Of a DNA stretch of 64,000 nucleotides, positions 4,288 through 62,348 are shown piece after piece. The notes below the pieces were generated by a model that was not told the origin of the DNA, ran no database searches, and worked only from the letters and a program-made list of their open reading frames with translations. How positions within the stretch are numbered: the first letter of the stretch is position 1; every line of letters starts with the position of its first letter. The position numbers and the translations under genes were made by a program. Location: the NCBI GenBank assembly GCA_965153455.1, contig OZ234494.1:1984001-2048000 (forward strand). Reading direction: 5' to 3'. This DNA is from Sphagnum compactum (lineage: Eukaryota).

Positions 4288-4470
4288 TGTCTTCTGTTAA
4301 ACAATTATGGTAGTTGGAGAGGCCTTTTCTAAGCTTGGTGTCCTTCCATGTCTTCTATTAAACAATTGTGATAGTTGGAGAGGCCTTTTCTAAGCTTGGT
4401 GTCCTTCCATGTCTTGTGTTAAACAATTGTGGTAGCTGGAAAGGCCTTTTCTAAGCTTGGTGTCCTTCCA
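4288..4470 (+). repeat. Tandem repeat, 3 x 61 bp
   Basis: Units tgtctt...ggccttttctaagcttggtgtccttcca start at 4288, 4349 and 4410. Confidence 0.95.
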
Positions 4471-18746: not shown

Positions 18747-18876
18747 TGCCACACTTGCGTTTGCTTTCTATCTTTCTCCAGCCAGTGACGCCCCTTCTCT
18801 CTGCGGACTTGTTTCACAAAATGGATGGATGAACTAATGCATCCATGGATGGACGGACAGACGGACGGATGCAGCC

Positions 18877-25730: not shown

Positions 25731-25766
25731 TTAAGGTGAGCTCGATTCACTTCTTGGGAGTTTCGG

Positions 25767-27038: not shown

Positions 27039-27039
27039 A

Positions 27040-30000
27040 AGCACATGAGTTGCCTTATGCGGGTGGACCAACCATCCACTTCATGTTAGGAAATTCCTGG
27101 GAAAGAGAATGCGTGGGAGGCTATGGCATGATGTGTGTGATGCGGATGTTGGATGAGTATGAGCCCAAGGAAGCCACCAAGTTGGTGACTTCCGCCAAGT
27201 GCATAAAGAAAGTTTTGGAAGAGTTCCCGGATGTGATGCCCAAAGAATTGCCCGAAGACTTACCCCCGAGAAGACGAGTTGATCATGCGATCGAGGTGAT
27301 GCCGGGAGTGGCACCTCCCGCCAAGGCCCCAAATATAATGAGCCATGAGGAGTTGAAAACATTTAAGGTTCAACTTGAGGAACTCCTCGCAAAAGGTTAT
27401 ATCAAACCAAGCAAATCACCATATGGGGCACCCGTCCTTTTTATTCACAAGAAGGATGGGACTTTGAGGATGTGTGTAGATTATAGAGCCCTCAATAAGG
27501 CAACGGTGAAGAACCGGTATCCTTTACCTCGGATCAATGATCTATTTGATCGTCTCTCGGGAGCCAAGGTGTTTAGTAGGATTGACCTACGTTCGGGGTA
27601 TTACCAAATTCGGATCGCGGAAGGGGACGAAGAAAAGACTGTTTGCCGCACAAGGTATGGCTCATATGAGTTATTGGTGATGCCTTTTGGGCTCACCAAT
27701 GCACCCGCCACATTTTGCACTCTCATGAATGACATTTTCCAAGAATGGCTTGACGATTTTGTGGTCGTCTACATAGACGACATTTTGATTTATAGTAGCT
27801 CCTTGGAGGAGCATGAGGAGCACCTTCGCAAAGTGTTCCAAAGGCTAAGGGAAAACAAGTTGTATGCCAAGCTTGAGAAGTGCGAATTTGGAGTGGCGGA
27901 AGTGGACTTCCTTGGGCATAGGATAACTCAAGAAGGTTTGAAGATGGATGATTACAAGGTTAAGGCAATCTTGGATTGGGAACCGCCTAAATCGGTTCCC
28001 ACCTTGAGATCCTTTCTTGGATTGGCATCCTACTATCGCAAGTTCATCAAGAACTTTGCAAGGATTGTCGTGCCTTTGACAAACCTTTTGAAGAAGTCCG
28101 CCGTCACTTATGAATGGGAAGAAGCATGCGACGAGGCCTTTGAAACATTGAAGGGCATTTTGGTGAAGGCGCCGGTGTTGAAGTTGCCCGACTTTGACAA
28201 AGAGTTTGAGATTCATTCCGATGCCTCCGACTTTGCAATTGGAGGAGTCCTAGTGCAAGAAGGAAGACCGGTGGCCTTTGAAAGTAAGAAGTTGAGTGAG
28301 AGGGAGCGAAGGTGGCCAACACATGAAAAGGAAATGTGGGCGGTCATACATTGTCTCAAGACTTGGGGCCACTACATAGGCTCCAAGGATGTGGTGGTGT
28401 GGACCGACAATGTGACCTTGAAATACTTTGCCACTCAACCCAAGTCATCATCCAAACAAGTAAGGTGGCAAGACACATTGGCATTGTTCAATGTGGATAT
28501 TCGGCACAAGTCGGGAAAGGAGAACATAGTTCCCGATGCCTTGAGCCGTAAACACCAACTTAAAGTGGTGTATGTGGGAGAGACGAAACTTCAAAAGGAA
28601 GTTCAACTAGCAAGCCGCCGGGATGCATTTGCCAAAGAGGTGAGGCAAAACATCCAAAATGGAGCCAAGTCCCACTTTCATTTGCAAAATGGATTATTGT
28701 GGTACAAACAAAAGCGACTCTATGTGCCGAAAGGGAAGATAAGGGACACCCTCTTGAAGGAGTGTCATGATGGATCGCTCGCGGGCCATGGTGGTGCAAA
28801 GCGCACCACAACATTTCTAAAGAAGTCCTACTATTGGCCTAACTTGAAGGATAGTGCGGAGGAGTATGTGAAGACTTGTTTAACTTGTCAACAAAACCGA
28901 ACCCTCAACAAGAAACAAGCGAGTTTGTTGCAACCTTTGCCAATTCCTGAAGGGCCGTGGGAAAGTGTGTCCATGGACTTCATGGTAAGCTTGCCCCCAT
29001 CAAAAGGGTTCGATGCCATCATGGTTGTGGTGGATCGGTTTAGCAAGATGGCACATTTCATTCCCACAAAAGATGAAGCCACGGCCCAAGAGACGGGAAG
29101 GTTGTTCTTCTCCCGCATCTTCAAGCACCATGGCCTCCCAAAGGACATAGTTACGGATCGAAACCCAAAGTTCACAAGCAAGTTTTGGCGAGCCTTGTGG
29201 AAGCAGATGGGGTCGGAACTCAAGATGAGCACTTCGTTCAAACCCCCAAACCGATGGACAAACCGAGAGGGTGAACTTGGTGATCCAACAATTCCTAAGG
29301 AATTATGTTGCGGCGGATCAACAAGATTAGGTGGACCATTTGGAGTTAGCCGGGTTTTGTTACAACAACTTGGCACACTCCGCAACTGGGTCCACCCCAT
29401 TCCAAATGGTGACGGGCAAGTCACCAATTGTGCCCATGATTTGGGCGGCACAAGGACAAACCTTGGGTGATGCAAATGAGGAAGTGCCGATGGTCCAACA
29501 ACTTGATGAAGAAAGGCGGCGCTTGTGGGAGTTGGCCAAGGCCAATTTAGAAAAGGCGCACAAAAGGTACAAGGATTTTGCGAACAAGTCCCGACGAAAG
29601 GTGAAGTTTCAAGAAGGGGATGAAGTGTGGTTGAACATCAAGAACTTCCGGTTGCCAGAAGGTTTAAGTCACAAGTTCTTGGGCCCATATGCGGGCCCAT
29701 TCAAAGTGTTGGAAAAGAAACTTTCCGACACTTATAAGTTAAAACTACCAGAAAATTTTAGAGTTCATCCCACATTTCATGTTTCCCTTTTGAAACCGGT
29801 CTCCCGTGATGCCTCAAAGCCTAATCGAGAGCAAAACTCAAGGCCCCCACCTGACTTGGTTCATAATGAACCAGAGTTTGAGGTGAAGGTCATGCTTAAG
29901 TCAAGGCAACTAAGAGGACGAGAACGGGAATACCTAGTTAAGTGGAAAGGATATCATGCAATAGAGGCTTCTTGGGTGACCGAATCCGATATGGAACATG

Positions 30001-30059
30001 CCCAGGAAGCCATAGAAGAATTCCACGCTAGACCGACAAAGAAAAGCCATAGAACGTGA
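27040..30059 (+). pseudogene. Pol: RT, RNase H, integrase, chromodomain (frameshift and stop in integrase)
   Basis: [62 protein letters not shown]. There is a +1 frameshift near 29242 (aaacccccaaaccgatgga, PQTDGQTER) and a TAG at ~29327. The C-terminal chromodomain reads EFEVKVMLKSR..REYLVKWKGY...ASWV..SDM. Confidence 0.93.
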
Positions 30060-38644: not shown

Positions 38645-40762
38645 ATGAGTGCAGGATGTGATGTGATAATGTGGAGAAGGCCAGCCATGGCGGTGCTGGT
38701 GCTGGCCTGTGGCACACTCATCTATTACCACTGTGCAGTGCGCAACCGCAACATTGTGGCACTCATCTCTGACGTACTCTTCGTCATCTCTTGGTCCCTT
38801 GCGCTCCTGGGCCTCATCTTCCGCTTTCTCAACCTCACGTATGTATGCCTGGCTGGCTGTCTCTCTCTCTCACACATACATACCTTGAGTGTATCTATGT
38901 ACATGTGTGTGTATGTGTGGGTGTTTTTTGGGTGCTGTGGTTTTTTTGTCTTTGCAATGTATGAATGAGAGACGGATTGGGATGCTCTGTACTTCTGCAG
39001 TTTTGCAGCAATTGTTCTTCTTGAGCCTGTTGCATCTGGTGTAGGTGCGCTTTTTTTGAGCTGCAATCCTAGACAAAAGCAAACCATTGAACATTGGGTA
39101 ACAAAGTTAGCTTGGAGTGTTTTTAGAGGGCATGTTTTTCTAGTGTGGACTTCACCTTCCTCTTCAAATCTTGCAAAGTTCTTTGTGATTCAGACTTGGG
39201 TTTGTGTGCACACTTTGAACACCATTCAACAAGATGGTAACTGCAGATGAAGCATGATGAGCTGAAGCTTTAGCCAGACACAGAGTCCTGAGTTCTCTCT
39301 CTAGACAACTGTGTTGACACCTGTTGGGAGTTAAGAGAGAGTTTTGGGAGCTTCTTCTTCTTCACTAGCATTACTTCAGAGGGGACCAAAAGGGACTTGT
39401 ATCATCAGCAGTGTTAGATGACAACACATCTGAATATATTTCAGATGTGCTACATGACAATTGTCAATTCTGATTTGCACACTGAAAAAACTCACAAATT
39501 CAACACTGCCAGCAACACAGTGCAGAACATTGAACTAAGAGTTTTTTATGTCTCTATGAGCTCTGGGAGTTTGTGTGTAGCTCACTGAGCAAAAGGATTG
39601 TTTGTCCAGTGTAAAATGTTACGATTTTTTTCACTTTACAGCTTGGAGTTGAGCAAAAAGATTGTCCATTGGATTTGAAATAGAGAGCAGGATGCTTGCC
39701 TGACAGCTGATTTTCACAATCAATGATTGTCAGGGAAGGTATGAGCAAGTGTGGGATTGAGTTTATAGATTTATGTTTTCGCCTAAATGGTGTTTTCTAT
39801 ATTCTGGAGTTATGATTGAATGCAGGATTTTGCCAGTGGATCCATCAGGGTGGCAAGTGTCAGTGGAGTCAGCCAATTATGTTGCAGCAATGCTGGCCAA
39901 CACTCTGGGAGCTACTGAAGGCGTTCTCAGAGTTGCTGCTGTAGGCTCTGATTTCAAGCTCTTTTTGAAGGTAAATTGTGAAGGACTGCCAACTCACTGG
40001 GTGCCCAGGGGCACATGCTTAAGAAAAATGCTCGCAAACTGACATCCACTTAATACTGGCATACTATATAGATGAACTTTTTCTGAGAAGCAGATTGTCC
40101 TCTGCTGAGATCATCCCTCTTCAATGTCAAAGCAAAAGCCAAAAGGGATGATGTGAAGCAATTTCTTGCTTCCCATCTTCACTCCCAACAATATAGTGCA
40201 TATTAGCATATACATTACAGACAAAAGTAGGTGCTGATCAGAATAACCTCCTTACATAAGAACCTCTTTCCAAGAACACAAACAAATGCATTCCTCAACA
40301 TAAGAAAAAAAACAGTGAGGGGGATTGTGGGGAATTTGGGGAAACAATTGCAGGTGGTTTTAGCACTCTACTTGTTATCAGCAATTGGGAGATCAGCATC
40401 CGGGGCTACAGTTGTCTACGCAGGTACATTCTTTCTTCCCTACACTTTCACAGGGATTCTCTCTATCACAGAAAAATTGCATTGCGTTGTATGCAACACT
40501 TGAAGGAGCTAATTGCATTGCATGTGTGGGTTGTTGAAGGTTTCCTAGACTGCAATCTATCTGTGGGTGTTTTTTCCCAGTCATGTAGTTATAAGTGCTG
40601 CACTCATGGTGTGCTGGTTCTCATCATATTGCAGCACTGTGGTTCATCTTCATTGTTCCTTTCTCTGTAAAAATGATTGCACCAAAAATCAAAACTCCCG
40701 CATTTTTGGTGAATGCTGCAAAGAGTCAAGGCACAGAAGCAGTGGGGCTGGAGTTCAGCTAG
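38645..40762 (+). CDS. Reticulon-like protein (RTNLB22/23-like), ~178 aa, 4 exons
   Basis: Exons 38645-38838, 39826-39970, 40354-40423, 40635-40762 are in frame with GT-AG sites. CDVIMWRR...GTLIYYHCA, PVDP..WQVS.E.AN, LANTLGATEGVLRVAA.G.D.KLFLKVV..LYLLSAIGR fit a reticulon homology domain. Confidence 0.88.
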
Positions 40763-42261
40763 GAGATTTGCTGTATTTGTGCAGAGGGGATGATTGATTA
40801 CCCTGCTGACACCACCCACAATATAATTTATAATATATAAGCCAGCTGTCTCTTTGATCAGCTCATTTTTGATCACAAAGAGTTCATCCAGGCCTCCCGG
40901 TGCTCTTGGTTCTCTCTGGAAATGGGCTTTAGGCCCATTTTCCATTGGGCTTTAGGCCTTGTTCCAGCCTTTGGCTGCTTTGTGCTTTGTCTTTGTCTAA
41001 CCCCGGTGGGAACTTCCAATAGTAATTAATTGAACTGTGGAGATGCATGCAATACAAGTTTTGCCTTAAATTTCAATGCAGTTAGTTTGCTCTTAGAATG
41101 TTGCATTTTTGTGCAATTGCATCCTCGATCCATGTTCTTCTTGGGTTATTCTATTACTATGACTTTCATGGATGTGGAAAAAGCTCTGGATTTATGGAAT
41201 GTACTCTAATAATCAAATAAATCTTTATTTCATATGACACTTCACTTTGAAAATGTGAGAAAGAGGGTAGAATGATTATAGAGGAGATGGGGGTTTATCA
41301 ATTTTGTAATATTTCCCACCCTTGCTCACAAAGGTTTTTTTCAATTTTGTGATGTAGTTGAAGTGGTGATCATCCATAAGGCAATTTAGCCAAATTTGGT
41401 TACAAACCAGATTTTTAATTTGTTGTCCAAATTGTTATACCTTTATGATAAGCTCCAATAGGTAGCCAAGAATGTAAAAGGACTTTTTTTTCCTACTTGT
41501 AGGATGTAACCGAATTTGGCTAAATCAATATGGTAAGAATAATGGTTATGGAATTTTATCAATTTAATAATATCATCTCCCCTTTCCGCTTTTTTCGTTT
41601 CGTTCTTATGTTCCCATATGGTTTTCAATATTTCATCATTCACATGTGCCTTTTCATGTCCATGTTATATTATAAAATCGAAATTGGAATTGACACAAAT
41701 AATGATGACCATATGGGAATGTAATTAATGGTTCATCATATATGGGGGGCTATGAGGGGTCATTGATTCATATGAAAAGTCATGTGAAATTTTTTGACAC
41801 ATTAATGTGCATTGATTCACACATGATAGTTCATAAGCAAAGTCTTTGTCATTTTATTGTGATGTGTAAATTTTTAAAAATTTCTTGTTTAGTTTCATTT
41901 TTATTAGTATATATAAATTAGTGTTTGTGACCTTTGGAAACACCTTCATTTGATGGAAATAAATTGTTGTATGAGTGCAAAATTTCATGAAATAAAACTA
42001 TAAAGGGAATTGAGATTTTACTTTTGAAAAGTTTCGATATAGTTTATGTGTGTGTGAAATACATGGTAGGAGAATAATGTGGCATATTAGTTATACATAG
42101 ACAATAAAAAAGTGAAAAAATATTTGTGCAAACAAGAACATGGATTTCCAGAACTATGTAATAAACATACATAGTTCGATTTTAAAATTGCTTGTGATCT
42201 ACAAGAACATATGAGCGAAATGAAAAAGGAGAAGGGGGAAAAGATATTATTAAATTGAAAA

Positions 42262-42682
42262 TGTTGTGCGCTACCACATTAATGCCTACAACTATCGTTG
42301 TCATCATACATACAACAATACACAACAAATAAATCCTTGAACACTACACCATACCCAAACCAAAATGAATTCACTTGTAACAAATAAGAATTCAAGCCCA
42401 AAACATAATTAGAAATCAATAACATAAAACCTATAAAAAACTTGCATAAACATAAAAACCTACAAAACAAAACCATTATGTTGTGAAATCTCAAATCACC
42501 AAAAAAGGTTTTGAAATCACAAAAACTTGGGTTTTATACTCAATGCACAAATTAGTTTAAACATGTTCACATTGGAACTTGTTCATAGTTAAACTACATA
42601 TTAAATTAGATTGGCCTAACTAAGTTATATTAAACATAATTAATTTAGACTTAATTATAAAATTAATCATAACCACCTAACA
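42262..42682. repeat. LTR-like unit (TG...CA, 421 bp)
   Basis: 42361-42682 aligns with 52671-52989; 42262-42360 aligns with 42685-42780. Confidence 0.75.
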
Positions 42683-43028
42683 ATTGTCATGTGCTACCAC
42701 ATCTGCACTTACAACTATCAATGTCATTACACATACAACACATAACAAATAAAACCTTAAATGGTACACAATACCAAAACTAACCCCCCATTTTGGGCCT
42801 AAGTCCCTTTAAGTCAGATAACATTATAAGAAATGTCTTATGAAAATCATCATTAATGAATACTTTAATTCCAAAATAAAAGGACTAGTACGCATGATGC
42901 AAATGGGAACCCCATTGTTAGTCACTTAACTACAATCCTTCAAATCCTCAACCAAATGTGAATCACTATGAAATAAATACTTAAGCTAGTCTTATTATGT
43001 GACCTAAAAAACCTCTATCTACTTAGGT

Positions 43029-43163
43029 GCACTAAAAGCAAAACCATTTGCCAATCAATATTTTGTTCAAGGGTGGTGTAAAACATCCCATATGGCAACC
43101 CCTTGAACACCAATCACACACCAACATAATGGTAGCCCCAATAAATTGCCCACACAAAATACA
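43029..43163 (-). pseudogene. PHD finger downstream of the integrase
   Basis: CILC-x11-CDWC-x4-H-x2-C..PPL...GKWFCF*C; a C4HC3 pattern with the last Cys just after a stop codon. Confidence 0.88.
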
Positions 43164-44417
43164 ATGAAATCCAACAAGAACAATTGCCAAATATGGGTCA
43201 ACTTGGTCATCCAAATGGGGAAGATGACACAACACACAATTACACACATGATCCTTACATGTATAACCATCTCAACCCTCTAACAACAACACACTAGAAG
43301 GTAAAACCTTATATATTCAAAAAATAACACATCCTATAGTGACATCTAAAGTAGTTGATGACGTCTAATGTAGGTACACATAATGTTTTAGTTCAAATTT
43401 ACAAATTCAAGGCTAATATCCACCTTTTCGAATAGTGGCATATCGAAATCTATCTCGATGTTGAAAATTTGTTAAATTTTCCATAACCATGGGCAGTACA
43501 CATTGAAACAAAACTCCTCATTACTCACATGCCTGAAGCCACACATTTGGATTAATCAAATTAATGATGGCCATCACATCTTGTCAAATTAAGGCTAGAA
43601 ATTTGGGCTCACAAACAAATAGTAAAAAATATGGAAAGAAATATCCAAGGGAGGCTTGCCAACGAAACCTATACACCATAACTAACCATGGTAGTTTTAG
43701 ATCCCAATCTTGAATATGACCATTTTGAAGCCCATACTTTCACAAAATACGCTTGACCATCTACACCATATGTTTAACTAACCCGTCTATTTCAAAATGG
43801 TATTACGAATTAGTGCAATGATCAATAAATGAATCATATAAATGAGTTTCAATCGAAGCCCTAAATCTATTGAATACCATATTTTTAAATGCATATGATG
43901 CCCTTTCATTATTACAATATAGTAATGGCACTAGCTCCAACTACTTGGAAAAATGTTCAATCATAACCAAAACATATCGGTTATGTCAAGGTGTCAAATT
44001 CAATGGACTAGCAAAATCCAAACTCCATTGTTATCCAAGCCCCATAATTTGTAAACGTTGTAAGTGAAGTGTAGGTGCATTGAAAGGTGTTCAAACTTAA
44101 TCACACCATACACCGAATTTTTTTTTGTTGAACCTACAATTGCATCCCTCGCCACCAATATTGTGTTTGGAACAAACTGTAAGCCCATCGAACCCAATGA
44201 TGGCCCCACTCCTCATGAGCATGTTGGACAAAACCATCATGTTGTTTTGGGTAGGGTATTAAACCCATATTCATCCATATGTCCACACCCATAGCACATA
44301 TTCACCTTCTCATTTGAACCATTTGGCCCTATGAACAACTTGGTCCCATTCCTTGGGTGTCATCTAATCAAAATTTCACATGTTTGCAAATATGCAATAA
44401 TAGGTGAATCTTCATAT

Positions 44418-44966
44418 TATTAAGGGTGTTTTTTATTCCCTTTAATTTTACATCTTTTATTTTATTTTATAATTCTGGTTTATTAAAATTATTAATAGGT
44501 ATGGTTTTTTTCTCCAAATCTAAAATATCAAAACACAATAAACATTGAAGTCTTTTGTTTATTCATCAAGGACAAACTATTTTACCTCTTGCATTCCAAA
44601 GAACAGAAAGGAAAAGCTTCAAAAGAAAATCAAAATAAAAATAATTTTTCAAAAAATTCCAAGAGTTACAAAAAAATAAAAATCTCCTAATCTAGTTCTA
44701 AGTTCTTTTATTTATACCAACTCATAGTGTTGTTTCAACTTAAATAGTCACTAATCAGTATAAAACTCAAAATCAAAATAACAAAATTACTGGTCACACG
44801 TTTAAATCAATATGTTTTATTAACAACTAGTTATTAATTCATATAACAAAATGGTTAATTTAAGACTTGTTATTTAAAAATTAAATTAATCTCAAGGTCA
44901 TATTGCCTCACTAATTACCAATTGGTTTTAACCAGTCACTATATACATACTGAAAAATTGGGTAAA
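44418..44966. mobile_element. AT-rich ~550-bp insertion between RNase H and integrase (MITE-like)
   Basis: It splits the minus-strand reading ...GALDI|YEDSPIIAYLQ. Very AT-rich, boundaries approximate, TIRs not established. Confidence 0.5.
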
Positions 44967-46914
44967 CATATATCTAAGGCACCATTGCCTTATGGCTCAA
45001 TATCCTCCTCTTAGGAATTCCCACTATTCGATTTTGTTTTAGGTACATCCCCAAAACATCCTAATAAGGTGCACATGTATGTAGAAACATGCCACCCTAA
45101 TATTACTTCCAAATCCACATCACCATGCCAACAACCTTCAATAATATCCTCCTTACTAGAATTGAGGTTCTAATTCAACCCATTGGCATCCCGATTAATT
45201 CTACCAGCCCTATGCAATACATTAAAATCATATTCCTAGAGGATAATGCCCACCTAACGAACTTTCCTATGAGATGATTTGACTCCATAAAAAATTTGAG
45301 TAGTTGGTGATCGGTGACCAAAGTGAATGGGCTACCATAAAAATAAGATTTAAATGATGACACAACCCAAACAACTACAAGGCATTCCCCCTCATATGAG
45401 TTGTACTTGGCCTCCCTTTTTTATTAGACCAACTAATACATGCCACCACAAATTTTCGACCATCTTCATCAAGTTGGGTAAGCACAACCCCAACCTGAAA
45501 CTGTTCTAATCAATGTGTAATTGGAATGGTCATCATGGGATGGGTCACTTTAAAATGGGAGCTAATGAAAATCGAGCTTTCAATTTTTGAAAGGCCTAAT
45601 ATTATGTTTCACCCCAAATGAATTTTTAATCAAATTGTGTCAATTAAGTTAAAGGTTTATTTTTGCTACTGAAGTATTTCATAAACCTTTGGTAGTCATT
45701 ACACAAGCCTAAAAAAGTTCTTGACCAATTGACATCTATAAGTTAAGGAACTTGTGAAACGACCTCGACCTTGACCTTCTAAACCCCCAATCCATTGCAT
45801 AAATCATGTGACCCAAATATTCCACTTGGGTTTAAAAGAACCAACACTTGGTTGAATGAAATTTAAAGTTTTGTTCCGTAAGTCTTCTAAACATTTTCTA
45901 CAAATGATGCATGTGATCTCATGGGGTCAAATTAAAAACAATGATGTCATTGATATGGCACTTGGCAAAACCAAGACCCGTTAACACTCGATCCATGACC
46001 TTTTAAAATTTTGTAGGGGTATTTTTCAAACCAAATGACAAAAACTTTTATTGGTACAAAAAATCCTTCCCATGAGGATTGATTCCCCAAATGTCATCTT
46101 GACCTTGTCACCATCCTTTAATGGCAAGTGATGGTAGTTAGACCTCAAGTCCAAGGTATTGAAACCTTTGGCCTGACCGAGGCCATCAAAAAGCTCTTCA
46201 AGTAAGGGCATCACATATTTTTCCAAATGGGTCCGTTTATTCATTAAATGGTAATGCCCACACATGTGGCATTTGGTCCAATTACCAAAAATGTCCTTTT
46301 TGGATGGCATCACTATTGTTGAAGCATATGAACACCCTTAGATTGTTTCACCAAACTTACATGTAGTAACTTTGTTGTTCGAGCATGAACCAAGGCTCTC
46401 TCCACCTCACTAAGCTTGTAAGGTCACGTAAATATTAGATTATTATCCTCTAATGTGATTAGGTTTTCTTGTCCTTTTGATTGACCCAATTCCTTCAAAC
46501 TGAATGCAAAATATCCAATGAAATTTTATAATAATCATTATGCACCATGCACCTCACCTCTTATAATCGATGGGCTAATATTTGGCTCCCATCTATTTGT
46601 AGTCACTTGTACTTTAGGTTGGGATGATGAAACATCCTTGACACCCAAGGTTGAGGGCATGGCATGTGATTGTTACATGGAATGTGGGGAAGTGCCACCA
46701 CATCTTAGCACCCCCACATCACCAAATTCTTGTTCCACACCCATAAATCCTCTTCACTGTCCTTAATCCCACAATTGCCAAAGATGCACAACTTGTCATG
46801 TTGTAATATCAACCCTCCCCTTGCACAAACATAGCTAACCCAATGAAAAGTGCAACATATGGAAAAGTGGGTGGAATGGGTGGGTTTGTTTGATCAAAAA
46901 GTTTTTTTATTTTA

Positions 46915-47490
46915 CCAAGACCAAATTGAAAATCCATGTGAGGTAATTTAGATCCATAACTTGCCCCAAATTGTTTTATGAATTCCTTCAAGAATACTTT
47001 GCACAAATGTGGTGCAAATGTGAAACCCTATGGCTCGTTCACTTTCATTTGCATTGGGTTCCTCCATATTGGATGAATGGGAATCCCAAATCATCCCTAG
47101 GCCTCCCATCCCTAGGCCTCCCATCCCTAAAGGCATGAGAACATGGGAAATTCAAGAATGTCGGTAGGGTTGTTCATGGAAGGCCAACTGTATTGACCAC
47201 AACCAAAGGTGATCATGACAAACCTACATTTAGCTATGATTGGGCCCTTAACAAGGTGATGTTGCTTGGTAGGGAATGTTGACAACCTTGCATGGTTGAT
47301 GTTGGCAACAAGTTGGGATAAAATTGCTATAACATCATGACATGCCACATGGAGGTTTATATGGCTTATGGATCCTTCTCCACATAATGGCATTTTCGGA
47401 TTAAAATGCCAGACTGTATAATTGTGCATAATCCAAAACTAATGCCTCCAAATAACTCAAGTAGGCATATTCCATCTTGAGGAATATCCC
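46915..47490 (-). pseudogene. Cytosine-5 DNA methyltransferase-like domain, internally deleted and decayed
   Basis: Motif I-like LLELFGGIS.G (47438-47465) and motif II-like HYVEKDP; motif IX-like EEPNANESERAIGF (~47023-47065); motif X-like GQVMDLNYLTWI (~46930-46967). Motifs IV (PC) and VI (ENV) were not found. Confidence 0.75.
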
Positions 47491-50400
47491 ATTGAATAAC
47501 CTTGGTATCCAATGGGCTCAAACCTAGAGGCACAAATGAATGTGGGTTTGGTGATGGTAAAATGTGCCAAACTTGATGAATGTAATCATGAATAGCTGAT
47601 GTTTGGAGTTTGGTCAATGTGTCCCATGGTGGCTTGGGATCCAATGTGGAAATTGAAATGAATGCCATCCCTTGTTGCATTGACATCACCAATTCACCAC
47701 TTAAAGGTACATTTTGGTCATGGACGTTACTTTCCAATAATTCAAACCTATGTGGAAGGCCTAAAAATTTGACCAACATAATTGATTTGTTGGATTTTCA
47801 TGTTTGACCCCCAATGAATTTCATCGACAATAATGCATTGTGGCTAACTCTCGTTTGCCAACATGGGCAATAGTATGTGGTTTTTTCCCCAAAATCTTTA
47901 ATAATCCCCATGGATATAAAACCACACCTCCCAGCAATACGTCATAGGACATAACATGTGTGACCATTATTTGTGCTTGAACTATAATGTAGTTTGTTGA
48001 TTTGTTGGGATTAACTTAAATCACAATTTCTTGTTTGGTTAACCTTTGAGTCATGTCCAACCCTCCCACTGATGTTGATATTTGATATGGGCATGGGTTG
48101 AAATCGGCAACGATCAATCCAAGACCATCAATGGTTGAACATTGAAATCCAACAACACTTTTTAGGGTCGATACCAACCTACTGATGCCCCCTTCAATTT
48201 AAAAACTCCTTCCTCATAATGCACCACTGCCACACTAATTAGCCCAATCAATGGTTAGTTGCATTAAAAGGTTATGAAGTTCGGCCACAACCACATGCCA
48301 AGATTTAGGTTGAACCTTGGACACCTCCATGGGGTTGGATTCAGAAACCTACTGGGGAAATGTAAAAGGTACAATAATGTCTTTTGACCTAACCACCACA
48401 TCTGATGTTCCTTCATTCTCACATAATGTGGCTGCCAAATGAATCACAACTACTAGTTGAATACATGAAACAACTAATGTTTCATCAAAAAATAATGGTA
48501 ATTAACACACCATTTTGGCCACCCCCAATAAAATTGTTAATGTCTTGGATCTAAAAATCTGGCATCACACCAGAGGTTAATAACCCCATGGGATTGGGAA
48601 TGGTGTTTGTCAACACAAATGATTGTGGGAGTCGCACTTGGCGTTAAACTTCATCATGACAAGGATCAAATTTTTCATATGCATTTCGTGGTTCTAGCAA
48701 TCAAGCATTAACCCTTATCATTGGTGCAATTATTGAGATCATTTCATTATGATTTGAAACCATAACATGGTTTCCATCATCTATTACCCATTAATCATGA
48801 TCTCCTGACATATGTGGCATAATATCTTTTTGTGCCACTGATATTAATAAACTGGTAACACAAAAGAATTTTAAATTAATATTTGAACGATATGATTGGC
48901 CATCTTTTCGATCCTTGGCCTTCCATGACCCAAATTTATTAGATTTCACCTAAGTCACCATGCTTGTGACCAGGGCTTCTAACTATGCAAACCTGACCTC
49001 CATGGTGTTGGGTTGGCCTTAAGCTGGTTTGGTAATTGACCCTTTATTAGTTGCCCCTTTGCCTTTCTTCCCAAGAACCTTGGCTTTTACTAGCATTGGA
49101 AGTATGAGATTGGCCTTGTTGTAATCTTAGATGGAATGTAAATGACTGTTCTGCATCACGCCCATATGTATTACAATGGGAACATGGTTGGTTGAGATTA
49201 AGGTTGGAAGTATCGGCGTGAGGAGGATTGGATTGGGACAATTCTTCTTTTAATGTGGCCACACCTCCAACATTTTTTTCTCCCCCTTGTTCATCAAAAT
49301 ATGATATGGAACCACGTGATTCATATTTGGACGTCCCCTTGCCCTTTTGGGGCATGGCCTCATTGGGTTGGCCCTTTGGTTATTGAATTAATAATGTTGG
49401 AAAACTCCTTGGGTTTTTTTTATTGAACCCAAATGTAACCACACACTTTTCAACCATGTTCATCTCAATCCACTCTGACAAGTTGAATACATTAGCCAAT
49501 GTGGGTTGTGTAAGTTGAAGTAACAAAACATTTTGCACTTATTTCCTAGGAGCCTTCTCTAAGATCTCATACCAAAATTGGACTGATTGGGCCTTTGTAA
49601 CACCTTGTGTCACCATGATCAACCTATTCATTTATGCATAGGCCTCTCATAAGCTTTCATGGGGTTTATGTTGAAACTTTTACAAACATCACAATTTTTC
49701 AATCTTGGAACCTTTTGGTAATTTCGCAACAAATCTTGGAAAATTTCCACAAAAAATTAAAATGTAGGTAAAAGGTCTGGAATACAAGTGGATGCCCCTG
49801 CACCACCACTTTTGGTGACTCCATTACCACTAGCATTTATGTTTCACTAGCATTTTGGCTTCCATTGGCATTTTCACTTCCACTTGGTGAACTAATGCTG
49901 GGAGTTGTTGTTGCACCACTTGGGGCCAATAGAAACATAATTGGGCAACCAATATAGTCATTGTTTCTCAATTTGAATATTGTGGTAGTCATTCATGGGT
50001 GGCCCCTTTAAATCTTGGAATAGTCTCTTCCATGACATGGATGGTGTAAAAAGCTATGGGTTATGCAACATCTATACATATCACACCAAGTATCAATCTC
50101 TTGGATGAAATAATCTAACTTAATGGTGCCAACCATCCCCGAATATCAACGGGGGCCCTTGGTGGCTCCATATAGGTCATCCATGTCCCACAACAATGGT
50201 GTGGTGACCACACTTGATGATGAACCTATATATGAGGACTCTTTTTTAGATGATGATGAAGGCAACATGGGTGGTCTAAATCGCACCCCAAACTTAATAA
50301 AACCATTGGCAATAGTAACTATGTATTTTGTCCCTAAATCCTATGTCACTTTTGTGGTGAACCTTAACTCTAACTTGGGTATCCAATTTTGAAACCACTA

Positions 50401-52670
50401 TAACCAAAGGTTTTTGTACCTGTAATGGATTACGGTACACGTAAAAGAATGTTGAACATGTTGTGACTTAACCTACCCTTTAAACCATAATCCCCATAAA
50501 ATGGACCCATGGATGTTTCATATGAATGGTTAGGGCATTTACACGCACAAAAACATTTCATGAGGTCGATAAAACTTGGGCACACTATGAACACAACAAA
50601 TGTGGTTATCAACTTGATCTCACCAGCATAAACATAGCATGGGATGATTGGTGATCAAATCCAATACATCCATAACAATGCCAACCCCGTACAACCTAAT
50701 AATATTTAATTAAATCCTAATCACGACATGTGAGCAAAACATGAGTCAAACAAGACCTACACAATGGTCAAAACTAGGTGGTAGCCTTGTCCCATGCTTG
50801 GCCATTAACCACACCATTAAAACCCAAGGTTCATTATGAGAATAAAAACATGCATGGAAAGGCACATAACCTTTCACCTTGAATTTTTCATTATGTAATA
50901 TGAAAATGTTTATGACAAATCAACTTAGAAACATGTGTTTACTCATTAAATTGTCGACCAATGGCACACAACTCACGAAACCCCCTTACCTCCTAAAAAT
51001 GAATTGATGACCCAACCTACATAGTGATAGGAGGCATGTGCACCCCACAAACGCAAGTGAAGGTGCAAAAATCATGCAACACAAATATCCATTTTTGTGA
51101 TTTCCACATACAAATCACAACAAGAATTCAAAATGAGTTTAGGATTTGCTTGATGATGCAACACTCCATTACTTGTAAGATATAGGTTTGGGGCTTATCA
51201 ATGCAAGATGTTAACAACAAAATCCTTGACAAAATCGACCCCACACACACTGCTTTCTGCACATGTGAAAACCCTCTGAAAATGTCCTCCCCCAAAATGG
51301 CCTAAAACTTGCACACACTTAGCTTTCTTTTTTAGGATCACAATGGTGAAGATGACATTTAGTTCCACCTTTGTATGAGAAATATGAACTTTCGAGATTT
51401 AATGAAAAATAAACCCCCCCAAAAAATAGCCTCTGGATTAACCAACTTGTAGTTTCCAAAAAGCTTTCATGCTTGCATGCTTGTAAATATTGATGAAAGG
51501 AATCCAATGGTTTAAAAAACACTCCATTCCAACACCATATGTGGAAGTTATGGGCTTTCAAAGTTTGGAGATGGATGAAACATTTTTATCCAAATTATGA
51601 ATGAAAGTTGCCACTTGAATGATAGTAAAAAATGAAAAAATAGAGAAAAGGTAAATCTTTGGATGGATGTAATATTCAAATTATGGATGAAAAACCTTCT
51701 AAATGGATGAAAATTGAAAATGAAAACTTTGATGAATTAATTTTGGCATTCAACATGTGCCCTATGTTTAAAAAATGAGAAAAAAATTGAAAAATTATAT
51801 GGGAAGTCCGGATTGGACTTCCCATGCCTCCTTATCCCAAACCTCCTTTGGGCCTTATGAACCTCCCAAAGGGCCTAAGCCTAGGAGGCTAAGAAGATTA
51901 CTAAAAACCAGGCAATGGCAATGGAGCTCTGAGCTCCTCCCACCATCGACCTTTTTTTTTCCTTCTCTTATCCTCTTCCTTCTTTTCCTTTTCCTTCTTC
52001 CTTCCTCTTCTCCTTCTTTTCTTGTTATTCTCTTATTTTTATCCTTTTTTCCCTCCTATTGTAGTTACAACAAGGATGACGAACGTTGTGGGGAACTCCT
52101 CTCCTTGCCTTTTTTTACTTTCAAGTTGAAGCCACAACTATGCCACCAACAATGACTAGGGGGCAAAGGACGCCCCCCTTTTCCTTGATGAATTGGTGCC
52201 AAAGGCTAAACAACTAAAAGTTCAAGCTCCTTGGCGATGGGAGTGGTGGTTCCAATTGTTGTTGCCATTGTACCTACCAAGGAAACAAAAAGAGAGATCA
52301 AGAGAGAGAAGAATAAAGAAAAAAACATTAAGGGGCCCCTGTGACATAATTAAGGCCCTCTTTGCTTCTTGTGGTACTTTTTTCTTTTCCCAACTCCAAG
52401 GTACCCATGCCTTGTTTGGGTTCAACTCTTCATGGAATTTCAAACCAAAAATTGTCACAAAATTTCCAATTTCATTAGGTGAAGCAAATCAAGAAATGAA
52501 CAAACATAATTTTTCAATCAAGCAAAACTCTTGTAAAAACAATGTGCAACAACACAACTACACCACTTACCGTTAACCCACTCTCGTGCAAAACATAAAT
52601 ATAACCATGTGCATAAACAAAACAAAATTAGTTGCATCAGTAAAACAATTAATTGCCATTTTGGTGATTC

Positions 52671-52989
52671 AAAATGAATTCACCTACAACTAGTAGGAAT
52701 CCAACCCCAAAACATAACAAGAAAGCAATAACACAAAACTCCAAAAAAAACTTGCATAAACACAAAAAGTTGGAAACTAGAAAACTACGTTGTGAAATTT
52801 CAAATCACGAAAGAAAGATTTGAAATCATAAAAACTTGAGTTTATACTCAATTCACAAATTAGTTTAAACATGTTCACACTGAAATTGGTTCACAACCAA
52901 CTACATATTAAACTAAATTAACGTTACTAAACGAAATTAAACATAATTAATTTAAACTTAATTATACAACTAATCATAACCACTTGACA
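52671..52989. repeat. Partial LTR-like repeat at the element's 5' end
   Basis: caaaatgaattcacc...cataaccacttgaca matches 42361-42682. Confidence 0.8.
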
Positions 52990-55436
52990 ATAAACTCCAT
53001 GTCCTACCATTATTCTTACCTTTTTCACATTTTAAAATTGAAGTTTAAATTAAAAGTTAATGATGTATTTAATTATTAAAATATATTCCATAAATCTAGA
53101 GTAAAATCTTACCCAAAATGCTTAAAATTGTATTAGCATCATAGTACACTTACACCATAAGTGTTGCATTTAATTACACATGTTATAATTTTGTTTTTGT
53201 ATTCAACATCATAAATAAAAAAGATTGAGAGGTTTTTAATTAATGTTGGTGGGTTCTTGAATTTCAATAGCTTCAAGTCAAATTATAAACTTAGGTTTTA
53301 AAATCTTTGGACCAAACCTTCCAAGTTTTTTTTGAATTACCATTGAAACCTAATGAAAGAACTAATTTATTTTCAAAATTGAGTTAAAATTTTAATTGTG
53401 GATGTTGTCTTGTTTTAAAAAGGTTTAGGTTCTTTACATACATAAATATAATTTTATTTTAAAATGTATGAACTTGGTTTTACATTTTAAATAAGTTATT
53501 GCATTTGATTAGTTGCACATAATTAATATTACACAATCTTTAACTTAGAACAAGTGTATTAATTTAACAAATAAATTACACAATTGTTTTTGAGGGTGGG
53601 GGTGGGGGGGGGGGGGGGGGTGTGGGGAGGATTTCAATTGTGTGTAATGGAGATGGAATTGAACTTTGTCTTAAACCAAACTAGATCTAAATTGTATGAA
53701 AATAATTGAAATTGAAATTTAAAAAATCCAAAAAACCAATCCCAAGATTGGACTAGAGATTTCATTATAAAAAAAGAAAGTTAAAACTGACCAAACGTTC
53801 CTTTTAAAATGTAAACTTGAACAACAACAATCTCAAGTTCCAACCCATCTATCTACCCATCAATCTATTATGGGGTGAATGCATCTCAAAACTTAGGTGC
53901 TTCCAAGTTCATGGATACAATTCCTCCCCACCCACCCATTCATTTGAGTCCAATTAGAAAGTGTCTAAACTTTGGGAAGAAGGTGGGTAGCACCTAGCAA
54001 CCCTAATAAAAATGATGCTCATGAATTACATGTAATGAATGAATCAATTATCGATACATTGCGCTTTGGAATTCCCCCTTGGAAAAGCTTCTTTTGCCTC
54101 CATAGGCCAACAATTTGTTTTGGGTTGTGGAACACAAGAGGCTTGCTACCCAAGTTGCACATTCTTATGACACAAACTATAAATTCGTATGCACACTTTC
54201 AAACACATGTTATTCATTATAGCACACCATGCCAAAGCTCTATATATGTTTATATATATATTTATACATTCTCTAGATTATCTAGAGTTCATGGTTTCAA
54301 GCGGTTCATTATGTACATAATTCAAACAAAAAAAACATGAAAAAATAAGAAAATTAAAAAGGGTGAAGGGGATATATATATTAAAGTGATAAAACTTCAT
54401 CTCTTTTACCATTATATTTATGACATTCTCATATTTTCAAAATGAAGCTTCAATAATAATTTGAAAAGACTTATTTAAATACTAAAGTACATTGCATAAA
54501 TCCAAAGCTTTTTCCTTGGCCACAAGGTTTTATATAAGTAGATAGGGAGAGAGAGAGAGAGACACACACACACACAAACACACACATCTACTCAATTGGG
54601 AAACAGGTAGGAAGTTATTTGGGGGGTACAAAGTCACTGGAGCTATGATGGTCTAGGCTAGACCTCTAGGAAGTAGTAATAGTTAATAGTACCTTGTGGG
54701 TGTTTCTAGAAGGTCAATTGTTTTAGGGCATACAAAAAAGAATAGAGTAAAGGGGTTTGTGTAGTGAGGAAGATTTTTAAAGAAAGATTTTTATTACCAT
54801 AAGTCAATTCTCGGTGTAGAACATCCCCCTCCGAATACACTAAAATAATTCTTTCAGTTGTTGAAACAATTTTTTAGTGAAAATATCATGTTGAAAAAAT
54901 TGTCACAATTATGGAAGGGTTTTGGTATGAATAATCTTGTTAAACCGATACGACATTTATTATGGTAGACTTAAAGAAAATCATAAAATATATATCAAAA
55001 TTTCAAGTATAATAATAATAATAATAATAATTTATTTTATTTTATTTTTGAAAAAGAACAATTATGCGGTTTTGTGAATGTGGAAGCTGACCCTAAGCTA
55101 AGGGAATCTATTATGCAACGATGGGTGGGGCTCAACTTGGTGCTTGGTGTGCACGCAATTGTGGTGGGCCTCCCTTTGCCACCCATCCATAGTTGAATTG
55201 TACGCACATGCTTTTCAAAAACATTATTGGTTCCCATCAGTTTATAAGTATATCCGGGCAAACTTTTTGTAGGACTGTGGACCTCCCAAACACTTTGTGA
55301 AAAGGAGAGCCTCTTTTTAGGGTTACGTATTTAACTTATTGGCTATCCCTGTAAAGGGAGAGAGATGTAGTTTTTCATTTTGGTCCCACACACATTTTGA
55401 AGGTATGTTGGGCAGGTGTTCACTCGGAGTTGATTT

Positions 55437-55438
<2 letters not shown>

Positions 55439-55472
<34 letters not shown>
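55439..55472 (+). repeat. Long poly-G tract
   Basis: An uninterrupted G run of about 34 nt; other G/C runs near 15810, 19050, 34522 and 53600. Confidence 0.9.
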
Positions 55473-56645
55473 CTTCGTGGAACATTTCTTATTTTCACCA
55501 CAAGCTGGGTTGGCCGAATGTTGAAAATCGAGTTGGGTAACCAATTGGGTCAGGTGGGCAAAGGGTGTTGGAAATTGACCTGCTAAGTATCAAAAACTTT
55601 CAGAACAGGGCTCCAGATCCTACCTGCATAACATTAAGTTTGGAAATGTTTCATCGTACCCCAGTTGGTATAATAAAGTTATCCGTAAAGTCACCCTCTC
55701 TTTCACCCCCATCCCCTCTTTTGGTGGTTTCCCCAAAGTAAGGAAATTTTATTAAATCTCAGAATGAAATGCTGAAACTGAGCATTTAATGTACTTAATT
55801 ATGCTTATAAATGTCATTATTTACCTAATAATAACAGCATTTACAAGCTTAGTCGCAATTACAAATATGATGGCACAAGGCGCTCTAATCCTCTATTTTG
55901 TTAGAATGACAAAGCCATACCTTTTTAATGTTCGAGAATAATTATATTAGTTGTACAGGTAGGAGCAGTGAAAATATATATGTAGCAGCAGAGCAGTGGA
56001 GGCGCTCAGGAAGAAGGAAAGAGGGGATGAAACTCAGTTTACCACCAAAATTCGTGAAAAAACTAGTTTGGGTCCCTGTTATTTCGTTTTGTAAAATTTC
56101 ACTAGTTAAGCATTTGATGCCCTATTAGGCCGAAACTGACCGTTCTCGCCCCCTGATCGCCTTACTGATAAGTTTAATATCACTTTGAGGAAAAGTGATT
56201 GAAAACCATGCAATTGAAAATGAAAATTTACAGTGATATTTACAGAAATAATTGGCACCAGTAATAATTTCTGAAACCTTGTGTGACATTAAATTATTAT
56301 TATTATTATTTTCAAATACCTTGCCTAGAGGGTTTTTTTTTCAAATTCCTCATGTAGGTGCACTGGCTACGATCCTCCGCATTAATTAGCAGTAAATGCC
56401 AATTGTCCTGGTGGAGTAGACTTTTTTTGGAATCCTGCCTATTTCTGGCGACCTACATGAACACACTGTCTAAATCTGGCCCCTTCTAAGTTTTTTTTTT
56501 TCCCTCAAGATATGGCGATTTTTCAAAAGAAAATTTCAAAACGATTCGCCAGCCTCTTTTTTTGTCGTCAGGTTGGGAAAATTTGTTTCGCCACAAAAAA
56601 TAACACTGCTCACCTAGCTGTATATTGGAAAAATTAAAATCCAAA

Positions 56646-59921: not shown

Positions 59922-62348
59922 ATGGTTGTAAATATAATTGTATTGGTAGTTCTGCTTTTGAAATTAGTCAATTTGTATATGATAATGGAAGTTAGTTCCA
60001 ATGGAAATTCAGCTCACAATGCCACTCCTCCTCCTCATACTTTACCTAGTTCTGAACACAGCAGGAAACGGAAGCAAGTATGCAAGGTTGCTACCACTCT
60101 ACCTGCCTTTGCACCAGCAAATGGAGCTAAATGCGTACAGAAAGTTAGTAAACGAACCAGAGATGACAACCTCGCCAATCAGGACTCTATGGAGCCAGCT
60201 TGTCTGCACGGCAGGTTTGGTAAGAGAGTCTCTGTCAGAGAAAAGCAGTATAGTTGTACAAAGGTGTGTCCACTATCTTGGAGTAATGCAATCTCTGAAC
60301 AATGGACGTGCCTCAAAAATGAGGAAGGATTTGCAGATATCAAGGCCAAGCTTGTGCAAGGACTTGCTCTGCTTGAGTCAGACTCCGTAATGCCACAGAT
60401 CTATCAAGACTCTGTTCTGAATGAACAAGCACAGTGTCTTGAAAGACAAGAGCAGCTGCTTAGACAGTCTCAAGGTGATGCTAATGTGCAATTTGCATGG
60501 CCTTCCCTAAAAAATGAGGAAGAATTTGCAGATGTCAAGGCCAAGCTTATCAAAGGACTTGGTATTTTCAGTTCAGATGCCCTGATAACAGGGATCTATC
60601 GAGATTCAAGTTCAAAAGGACAAGCACGGCAGCAAGCCTTTGAACGACAGGAAGAGCTGACAAGAGAAGCTCGAGGTGATGCAAATGTGCAGTATGCATG
60701 GCATGGAACTTCAAAGACAGGGGTGTCAGGAATAATGCTACATGGCTTTGGACAGCCTAGGACACCAAAGAATGGCTCAGCTTATGGTGTTGGAGTTTAT
60801 TTGGCCCCAGAAAATCATGCTGATGTCAGGTGGAAATGTCTTGCTTATGCATTTGAGATGTATTCATGCATATGTTCTCTATTTTTTTGAGCCAAGGCCC
60901 TTGCCTTCACTTTGTGGGCCAGCTCTTTGTATAATGAAAGGGAGGTGCATTGGATGGATGGCTTTGGTTTGAGCCTCTTGGCATGATGAGACTGATCTAT
61001 GAATTGCCTGTGTATAGTGCTGTGTATGCAGATAATGATGAAAATGGAGAGCAGCACATGTTGCTGTGTCGGGTTGTATTAGGGAGGCCAGAGCCTGTTA
61101 AGCAAGGCTCTGATCAGTTCCACCCTAGCAGTGAGCACTTTGACACAGGTGCAGATGACCTTTCCGCTCCAAAGCGACTTATTGTGTGGAGTACCCACAT
61201 GAACACTCACATTCTCCCACTCTATGCTGTCAGTTTCAAGCTGTCTCCTAAATGGCATGGTAAGTTCTGGATTGGTTTTTGATAGCTGCTTGTCAAAGAA
61301 GTTAGTTTTCTGATTTTTAAAGTTAATTTTTCTTTGGGTTGGTATTTATTTTTTGGTGACTATCTGGACAAGGCATAATTTGTTTTTTTTGGCAGATTTC
61401 AGTCCCAGCACCTGCTGTTGAATTGAAGGGATTCATGCAAAGGTATCTGTTAGTCCTGTATCTTTGCCTTTTAAGTCTTATACACAACAGCTGGCTAAGC
61501 CAAGTGATCTGGTTGCAGAGTTGATGGCAGAATTCAAGGGAAAGCAGCAGGGAGGAATCTTCAGAACATGGAATGATGTTCCGATGAAGTCTCCATGTGT
61601 TTACATCAAGGTTTGTCTTAAGTTTATCAATGGTCAGTTTGTCACTTCCTGTAGCATGTATGGACAGGTATTTGATCAAGTTATTGTGTTGGATGGTGTA
61701 CTTGATTTTCTCAGCATGCCTTCTGGACAGGCATTCATACCCTTGTTGTTGGTCAAGGTGGTGGCTGTAGGGTCTTTTGCAAGCTACTGCAGTACATCTG
61801 AGTGTATGAGGTGATCATTAACATGTGTTAAATGGTTTTCTAACATGAAGCATACACTCGCTGGGCTGCAGTTGTAGCCTCTGGATTACAAGTGGCTCTT
61901 TGGTTGGGATGATAGCTTTTTTGTGAGATGAAATAGTGTTTCTGTTGTGCAGACTCAAGAGCCATCAGAAGAATGGTATGACCATGTGGGTGGAATTCAA
62001 CAACAGGTTCTTGGTCCAACATCCCCCTGCGTCTCATTCCCATGCCTTTTTGTCATTTTGCGACAGCAACTTGAACCAGAAGACGTCTATTTCCTGGAGC
62101 AGCAGTATGTTGCATTCAAGGTGGTTACGAAACTTTTCATGGTTCAAAATTGTTAACACTGTTCATCTCCCTGGAGGTGTCCCACTAATTCATAAGTCTC
62201 CTGTAGGTGGAATGTGTTTAATGAGTTGTATCCTTTGATTTCTCAGGCTGGTAGGCTCCCGCGGGAACAGCTCATCAAAGTTTGTCGAGATGTGGCTGGA
62301 GATGCACTCCTGGTTAATGCTATTCGACAGCTTAACAAGTGCCAAAAG
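59922..62348 (+). CDS. RCD1/SRO-family protein (PARP-like domain + RST domain); start and last exon uncertain
   Basis: Exons 59922 (or ATG 59979/59985)-60829, 61018-61259, 61519-61610, 61953-62120, 62247-62348, then either 62996-63016 or 63878-63904. Motifs GDANVQYAWHGT, YGVGVYLAP, DENGEQHMLLCRVVLG, QFHPSSE.FDTG.DD...PK..IVWSTHMNTHILP; RST PTSPCVSFPCLF...REQLIK..R.VAGD.LL..AI. Confidence 0.9.

Follow-up and report, generated by a model that had tools for sequence, protein, structure and literature searches.

The closest described systems to the element presented here are gypsy elements of Klebsormidium nitens, which encode Dnmt3-type domains in Pol with Ka/Ks below 0.2 and which the available text of the original study regards as an acquisition in that lineage (PMC5890265). 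The same text reports that a Dnmt3 carried by a DIRS element of Symbiodinium methylates CG de novo. The available part of a 2026 preprint uses the term “streptophytes (Gypsy-DNMT3)” (10.64898/2026.05.21.726589), and a 2019 opinion/review, in the portion available, says that land plants “such as tracheophytes” do not have methylase-encoding transposons (PMC6338049). In the literature we searched, where subscription papers and supplementary species lists were thinly covered, gypsy elements of this type were described only from K. nitens, and we found no report of retrotransposon DNA methyltransferases (DNMTs) from bryophytes, mosses, or Marchantia. Here, we describe a decayed Ty3/gypsy long terminal repeat (LTR) element on the minus strand of a 64-kb window from Sphagnum compactum; by window we mean the whole 64,000-nucleotide stretch that was analyzed (contig OZ234494.1, positions 1,984,001 to 2,048,000). 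Judging from its sequence, the segment at 46930 to 47647 is probably, at roughly 80%, a decayed DNMT3-type C5 cytosine methyltransferase domain that is integral to the pol gene of this element, which would make the element one of the Gypsy-DNMT3 kind.

The original prediction, made from the letters of the window, had read several protein strings on the minus strand and interpreted them as a C5-methyltransferase-like domain between the protease (PR) and the reverse transcriptase (RT) of a decayed element. All of the quoted strings were found on the minus strand where it had placed them. The string QDGICLLELFGGISFGL...IIQSGILIRKCHYVEKDP closes a 143-aa open reading frame (ORF) at 47366 to 47797. 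LPSNITLL, near 47250, and GQVMDLNYLTWI, near 46940 to 46975, lie in the same frame, and EEPNANESERAIGF lies in a second frame, in the ORF at 46948 to 47151. The parts of the putative methyltransferase remnant are as follows, with P numbers denoting proteins and L numbers denoting related metagenome loci here and below:

47228 to 47647, minus strand: linker and N-terminal DNMT3-type part, from the family profile and tblastn, with three in-frame stops
47212 to 47228, minus strand: deletion junction in the DNMT remnant, where profile positions are absent
47114 to 47215, minus strand: DNMT C-terminal part a, VVNTVGLP.TTLPTFLNFPCSHAFRDG, matching profile positions 245 to 278 and, by tblastn, P0016, P0071, and P0030
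47092 to 47129, minus strand: tandem 15-nt unit in 2.5 copies within the DNMT remnant, read from the sequence
46930 to 47106, minus strand: DNMT C-terminal part b, matching profile positions 276 to 324 in the other frame and, by tblastn, P0016, P0009, P0031, and P0030

We built a family profile from 25 full-length natural domains and searched it against the six-frame translation of the whole window. The profile matched only at the DNMT remnant, in collinear pieces: positions 10 to 95 at 47485 to 47228 (E = 5e-21), positions 245 to 278 at 47215 to 47114 (E = 6e-7), and positions 276 to 324 at 47106 to 46960 in the other frame (E = 2e-7). By tblastn, the N-terminal remnant was matched by P0009 (E = 6e-21) and by P0008 (53% identity, E = 9e-29). 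It contains motif I as LELFGGISFGL, motif II as YVEKD, and the motif III region as LPSNIT; LELFGGISFGL ... YVEKD aligns with the family pattern E.FGG..GL ... Y.Y.D and also with LSLFDGIATGL of DNMT3A. On the far side of the deletion junction, the motif IX-like EEPNANESERAIGF in the shifted frame and the motif X-like GQVMDLNYLTWI in the original frame align with the family patterns ERER..GF and G.AMD.N, and in the alignment of the profile with solved structures these positions correspond to E.ER.FGFP and LLGRSWSVPV of DNMT3A. The 15-nt tandem unit translates as GMGGLGMGGLGM / RDGRPRDGRPRD.

A single-frame read-through of 46700 to 47797, with stops written as X (P0001), was used as the query of an exhaustive HMMER search against 1.84 billion representative proteins. 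This search returned 276 proteins at E ≤ 1e-3, 45 at E ≤ 1e-10, and 5 at E ≤ 1e-30, with the best E-values reaching 3e-48. Many of the matches were short fragments of decayed copies, 54 to 82% identical to the window, and the long matches were retrotransposon polyproteins; 99 of the 150 matches listed for P0001 hit the DNMT part of the family member P0009. Nothing matched when the 143-aa ORF was run against longer proteins in a word-indexed search, which we attribute to a limit of that method because the exhaustive search succeeded. The named relatives came from Marchantia polymorpha (MARPO_0008s0049, Mp_4g09160, Mp_8g17980, and others), K. nitens (KFL_009030040), and the green algae Haematococcus lacustris (three proteins), Monoraphidium neglectum, and a Scenedesmus. 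Mp_4g09160 was 39% identical to the window over 182 residues (E = 3e-29).

The type of methyltransferase can be read from these relatives. The Pfam C5-methyltransferase profile PF00145 was found in five of nine long matches at E ≤ 1e-3 (four of them above the curated cutoff), in five of seven further relatives, including Klebsormidium and Marchantia proteins and two uninterrupted ORFs (L004 and L007), and in 24 of 28 proteins with precomputed domain lists. Most of these matches exceeded the 22-bit cutoff, but they span only profile positions ~38 to 156. The 25 full-length domains align over ~330 residues and share E.FGG..GL (motif I), Y.Y.D (motif II), LP.D, AGW[PE]CQD.S.AG (motif IV), Y..EN (motif VI), AHR.R..WTNL, ERER..G, and G..MD, and the relatives keep the motif order I-IV-VI-VIII-IX-X. 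In a 19-sequence alignment, the catalytic cysteine C288 and the ENV glutamate E332 are invariant; HRxR and ERER are at least 90% conserved among the relatives, and the clade to which the window element belongs keeps WPCQG.

When a profile of the aligned relatives was compared with all solved structures, DNMT3A was the best match (E = 9e-23), its three collinear stretches taking in motif I, motifs III to VIII, and motifs IX to X. DNMT3C and DNMT3B came next, followed by DRM (5e-13), M.HhaI (1.5e-6), and DNMT2 (0.009), and there was no DNMT1 among the 56 matches of this search. The AlphaFold model of P0009, made with the alignment behind this profile, is confident over the domain, with a mean pLDDT of 54 to 97 per 10-residue block over residues 130 to 520, mostly above 88; the mean for the whole protein is 67.7, low because the tails are disordered. 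The top Foldseek matches of this model were all DNMT3B, DNMT3A, or DNMT3C (E ~6e-17, target TM 0.83 to 0.84, identity 20 to 22%). Taken together, the motifs, the ranking of structures, and the predicted fold of P0009 indicate that the family carries a non-rearranged DNMT3-type catalytic domain, a conclusion drawn from the relatives and not from the broken window copy.

The domain sits within a recognizable Ty3/gypsy element that spans 42361 to 52991 on the minus strand, with the order PR, DNMT-like stretch, RT, RNase H (RNH), integrase (IN), and PHD finger. Its other parts, in the direction of the element, are:

52670 to 52991, minus strand: 5' LTR, a direct repeat with 42361 to 42684
47902 to 48123, minus strand: aspartic protease remnant, from tblastn with the PR region of P0016 (E = 2.6e-8)
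45802 to 46334, minus strand: reverse transcriptase remnant, PF00078 at E = 1.9e-10 in a read-through frame (45802 to 46080), plus tblastn RT matches
45244 to 45616, minus strand: RNase H remnant, PF17917 at E = 6e-12 to 6e-14, and PF17919
43590 to 44262, minus strand, ends approximate: integrase remnant, from tblastn with the integrase of P0104, with matching segments starting at ~44262 and ~44105
43029 to 43163, minus strand: PHD finger after the integrase, PF00628 at E = 1.8e-5 and 25.1 bits against a cutoff of 24
42361 to 42684, minus strand: 3' LTR, a direct repeat with 52670 to 52991

PR, DNMT, and RT are collinear, with PR and RT roughly where the original prediction had them. The two LTRs are direct repeats of ~324 bp, 10.3 kb apart and 81.7% identical over 327 columns, with a possible but weak 4-bp target duplication, AAAC, on their outer sides. 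We recognized neither a primer-binding site nor a polypurine tract of this element by eye. No search confirmed a gag; there is only a decayed zinc-knuckle-like string in the ORF at 49047 to 49379. In the read-through frames of the element, with stops as X, Pfam gave only RT, RNase H, and the PHD finger; neither the protease nor the integrase remnant had a Pfam match. The protease motif ...YDVLLG..VLYP.G is shared with P0009 and P0071, and the arrangement of integrase followed by a PHD finger recurs in P0104, in P0232 of Haematococcus, and in many of the related metagenome loci. No second copy of the DNMT-bearing family was found within the 64-kb window. A very high-copy repeat at 41002 to 42504 adjoins the 3' LTR, with a read depth of 45 to 103 compared with ~1 in the flank and a contig word depth of up to 11,500.

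A scan of metagenome contigs, for which a few near relatives were aligned as the query, confirmed 107 of its 194 candidates and returned 80 loci. In every one of the 80, the matched strand encodes the N-terminal part of DNMT. Of the 62 loci whose upstream side offers 1 kb or more, 54 have PR there; of the 44 whose downstream side offers 2.6 kb or more, 40 have RT there; this leaves 12 exceptions. In the 34 loci of at least 9 kb, PR, DNMT, RT, RNase H, IN, and PHD follow one another at near-constant spacing. L007 has PR, DNMT, and RT in one reading frame, and the domain is uninterrupted, with all four checked motifs, including PC and ENV, in L004 and L007 alone. Proteins from outside these loci agree with this arrangement: P0217 is an uninterrupted 2,352-aa polyprotein with a zinc knuckle (CCHC), PR, DNMT, RT, RNase H, and IN, and P0016, P0199, and several Marchantia proteins are gag-PR-DNMT. 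Judging by this recurrence, the DNMT domain belongs to the element family, as had been predicted. Separately, three of the contigs hold fragments of a second element with RT, LTR, and DNMT parts (L014 at 2080 to 4131, L061 at 2092 to 4127, and L049 at 1511 to 4788), and these fragments are 67 to 78% identical in DNA to the window element, compared with ~65% for the main family of those contigs.

The window copy is a dead fossil that cannot encode an enzyme, owing to its stops, its deletion, and its change of frame. The read-through has 15 stops in 366 codons, and the frame changes near 47106 to 47114. Profile positions 96 to 244 (~149 domain positions, motifs IV to VIII) have no counterpart, so that motif IV PCQ with the catalytic cysteine, motif VI ENV, and motif VIII HRxR are all lost; tblastn with P0016 agrees, with residues ~1360 to 1512 unmatched. 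The death of this copy and the loss of motifs IV and VI were thus called correctly from the letters. The close fragments P0030 and P0031 retain residues just upstream of the junction, which means that the deletion is not shared by all members of the family. Among the read rows listed, a minority of the total, none had a joint or loose end at 47212 to 47228, which carries no weight for or against the junction.

Reads carrying the same species label gave a view of the family in the genome. In polyA RNA, of which ~12% of one run was read, depth was at most 0.22 per bin over 42505 to 53025, compared with 9.7 to 33.6 in the flank bins at 40000 to 41001. Raw Hi-C reads placed at no less than 80% likeness gave a DNA depth of ~9 to 10 over 46513 to 48015, 20 to 26 over the RT and integrase bins, and ~1 in the flank at 40000 to 41001, figures that are rough because most reads fitted only in part. 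The raised DNA depth indicates a multi-copy family. Transitions dominate the differences among family copies, both in the reads and among loci L001 to L080 together with the window element, and many of the stops derive from CAG/CGA/TGG-type codons. This transition bias may fit deamination of methylated cytosines in silenced copies.

We computed pairwise dN/dS across 19 of the related metagenome loci (171 pairs). The values were 0.61 for PR, 1.03 for the linker between PR and DNMT, 0.61 for DNMT, 0.49 for the stretch after DNMT, and 0.39 for RT. The DNMT domain was about as constrained as the protease during the spread of the family. The stronger argument for function is the conservation of the catalytic residues across very distant members.

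The Pol of the relatives encodes a DNMT3-type domain with intact catalytic residues between PR and RT. In active ancestors, the domain would have been made as part of Pol and would have methylated cytosines using S-adenosylmethionine (SAM). It would sit in the particle or the pre-integration complex together with RT and IN, and its most likely target would be the new cDNA of the element itself or the DNA of the integration site. Chromoviruses are gypsy elements with a chromodomain after the integrase. The PHD finger occupies the place of that chromodomain and may therefore direct integration, or the enzyme; it perhaps helps by reading chromatin, bringing one or the other to a particular chromatin state. 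This catalytic, DNA-directed role is a tentative proposal, to which we would give at best an even chance and perhaps nearer one in three.

Several observations weigh against our reading of the remnant. PF00145, by which the original prediction had proposed to recognize the domain, detected the relatives as described above and failed on the window copy itself, giving nothing on its single ORFs up to E = 10 or on three read-through frames up to E = 0.1, so the methyltransferase assignment rests on the relatives. The direct similarity of KFL_009030040 to the window is weak (E = 0.008 and 0.026, collinear). All 80 related loci are decayed; their longest DNMT-matching ORF is 467 aa and none has a long polyprotein ORF, so that the near family offered no active element. 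The DNMT value of 0.61 signifies mild constraint only, mixed with neutral decay after insertion. In the clade with the order RT-RNH-DNMT-IN (proteins P0055 to P0151), many members have E or D in place of the otherwise near-universal proline of the PC motif (WECQD, WDC..) with the cysteine kept, so that the role there could be non-canonical or non-catalytic. Finally, no methylation was obtained in yeast with the isolated K. nitens domain, a result that its authors call inconclusive in the available text (PMC5890265).

The last two of these points are what favors the most serious rival, in which the domain of the relatives keeps the methyltransferase fold without methylating the DNA of the element, acting either on RNA or as a SAM-binding, DNA-binding, or oligomerizing module of Pol, that is, as a pseudo-enzyme or a re-purposed one. 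Such a role sits poorly with a catalytic cysteine and an ENV glutamate that do not vary, with HRxR and ERER motifs conserved at 90% or more, and with the WPCQG of the window's own clade, and the related DIRS-borne Dnmt3 is an active CG methyltransferase in the study cited above. We consider this rival unlikely, although it deserves to be taken seriously. Much less credit is due to the idea that a piece of a host DNMT3 gene or of another element landed in this copy only, which would make the DNMT-like stretch a nested insertion or part of a chimera. In its favor are the age and rearrangement of the element and the repeats that adjoin it, including the one of high read depth at 41002 to 42504; against it, the order and spacing of PR, DNMT, and RT recur in the related loci, and the same order is found elsewhere in single uninterrupted ORFs (P0217, P0016, and P0214 of Marchantia) and in one frame in L007. 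The recurring order leads us to reject a private insertion, which we regard as very improbable; the original prediction had named such an insertion as what would overturn it, and the segment was instead found at the same place in other members of the family. Most improbable of all is that the methyltransferase motifs are a chance resemblance in a lineage-specific spacer. The silence of Pfam on the window copy and the empty word-indexed search with the 143-aa ORF would fit such an accident, but the exhaustive search, tblastn, and the family profile all contradict it, the first with its very low E-values and the last with collinear pieces at this one place in the window. A decayed DNMT3-type domain that is integral to pol remains the reading that we prefer.

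The position of the domain within pol is not the same in all relatives. We counted positions in 100 proteins of at least 600 aa with a DNMT match, near-duplicates included:

DNMT after PR or before RT: 41 proteins, including Klebsormidium and Marchantia
DNMT after RT/RNase H or directly before IN: 56 proteins, including Haematococcus and Monoraphidium
DNMT without another domain: 3 proteins, including Scenedesmus (P0254)

We then built a tree of 106 domains, comprising proteins with one full-length DNMT match and the partial Klebsormidium protein, without host DNMT outgroups. A single clade of 59 rows (SH-aLRT 99) held all 54 rows with the order RT/RNH-DNMT-IN plus five rows of unknown context, and all 40 rows with the order PR-DNMT-RT fell outside it. 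The read-through of the window grouped with L004, L007, and five Marchantia proteins in a clade of 14 rows (SH-aLRT 97); on this tree, the closest named relatives of the window element are those of the liverwort M. polymorpha. The split of the tree by architecture points to one of two histories: a single ancient capture, after which the module moved within pol, or two captures, both ancient.

Based on these results, we lean toward the view that gypsy elements with their own DNMT3-type methyltransferase constitute an ancient lineage of green plants and algae that persisted into land plants, with two fixed positions of the module, and that they are not private to Klebsormidium. The proposed placement would be PR-DNMT-RT in streptophytes (Klebsormidium, Marchantia, and S. 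compactum) and RNH-DNMT-IN-PHD in chlorophytes (Haematococcus and Monoraphidium). This view, which we hold to be somewhat more probable than its opposite, contradicts the printed absence of such elements from land plants and would make the “independent acquisition” in K. nitens belong to a lineage that is both older and wider.

Plants silence transposons mainly by cytosine methylation, which makes a transposon with its own de novo methyltransferase counter-intuitive. S. compactum holds a multi-copy, now dead family of DNMT-bearing gypsy elements, M. polymorpha has annotated gag-PR-DNMT ORFs in the same clade as the window element, and green algae have the sister architecture. This provides genetically tractable hosts among land plants for studying what the enzyme does. 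There is also a hazard for annotation, as copies of the element can be mistaken for host DNMT genes; UniRef labels one of the Marchantia proteins as a DNA (cytosine-5) enzyme.

The window contains other features. A well-preserved chromovirus on the plus strand, at 25740 to 30056, has three long ORFs (gag-CCHC-PR, RT-RNH-IN, and SH3-Chromo) and passes from PR to RT without a DNMT, providing a contrast within the same window. Host-type genes lie among 9023 to 10607 (plus), 18222 to 18767 (minus), 59922 to 61279 (plus), and 20711 to 21333 (minus), and they comprise exons of an alpha-glucan (carbohydrate) phosphorylase, an RraA-like aldolase, and a protein with a PARP catalytic domain. A fragment resembling a non-LTR RT lies at 20959 to 21333. 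Poly-G runs at 53584 to 53636 and 55430 to 55480 attracted thousands of partly fitting DNA and RNA reads, which is probably an artefact of G-only reads.

Among known systems, host methyltransferases DNMT3A, DNMT3B, and DNMT3C gave the best profile and fold matches to the domain, and they share with the family the signatures F.GI.TGL in motif I, AHR.R..W.NL, and E.ER..GFP...T......R..LLG. They differ in that identity is only ~20 to 22% and in that the family lacks PWWP and ADD domains and forms part of a retrotransposon polyprotein; for motif X, the family has G.AMD.N and host DNMT3 has GRSWSVPV. Chromoviruses also have a chromatin-reader module at the C-terminus of the integrase, but the window element has a PHD finger as its reader and an extra enzyme in pol.

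Other retrotransposons with methyltransferases are more distant. SymbioDIRS-Dnmt3 and SymbioLINE-Dnmt of Symbiodinium are likewise retrotransposon-borne cytosine methyltransferases, the DIRS one being Dnmt3-type and CG-active, but they belong to other retrotransposon classes and hosts and are separate captures according to the available text of the paper, and it is by this description that we set them apart (PMC5890265). The EpiLTRs of Cymbomonas and Euglena are LTR elements with a cytosine methyltransferase and a chromatin-reader domain; in the available part of the preprint, their DNMT is sister to DNMT4 and lies at the 3' end of pol with an adenine methylase, and the preprint itself calls them distinct from the streptophyte Gypsy-DNMT3 (10.64898/2026.05.21.726589).

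The nearest counterpart is KnitGypsy-Dnmt3 of K. nitens, which, as far as the available text describes it, has a gypsy-type pol with a non-rearranged Dnmt3-type domain inside the Pol ORF and differs in its DIRS-like repeats from the plain direct LTRs of the window element (PMC5890265). The partial protein KFL_009030040, presumably a copy of KnitGypsy-Dnmt3, reads DNMT-RT-RNH-IN by Pfam and PR-DNMT-RT-RNH-IN by phmmer, and its DNMT matches P0009 at E = 6e-43. The Klebsormidium sequence falls outside the clade of the window in the tree, and the terminal PHD finger of the window element has no visible counterpart in the partial K. nitens protein. With these differences, the window element is apparently of the Gypsy-DNMT3 kind known from K. 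nitens and extends that kind to land plants.

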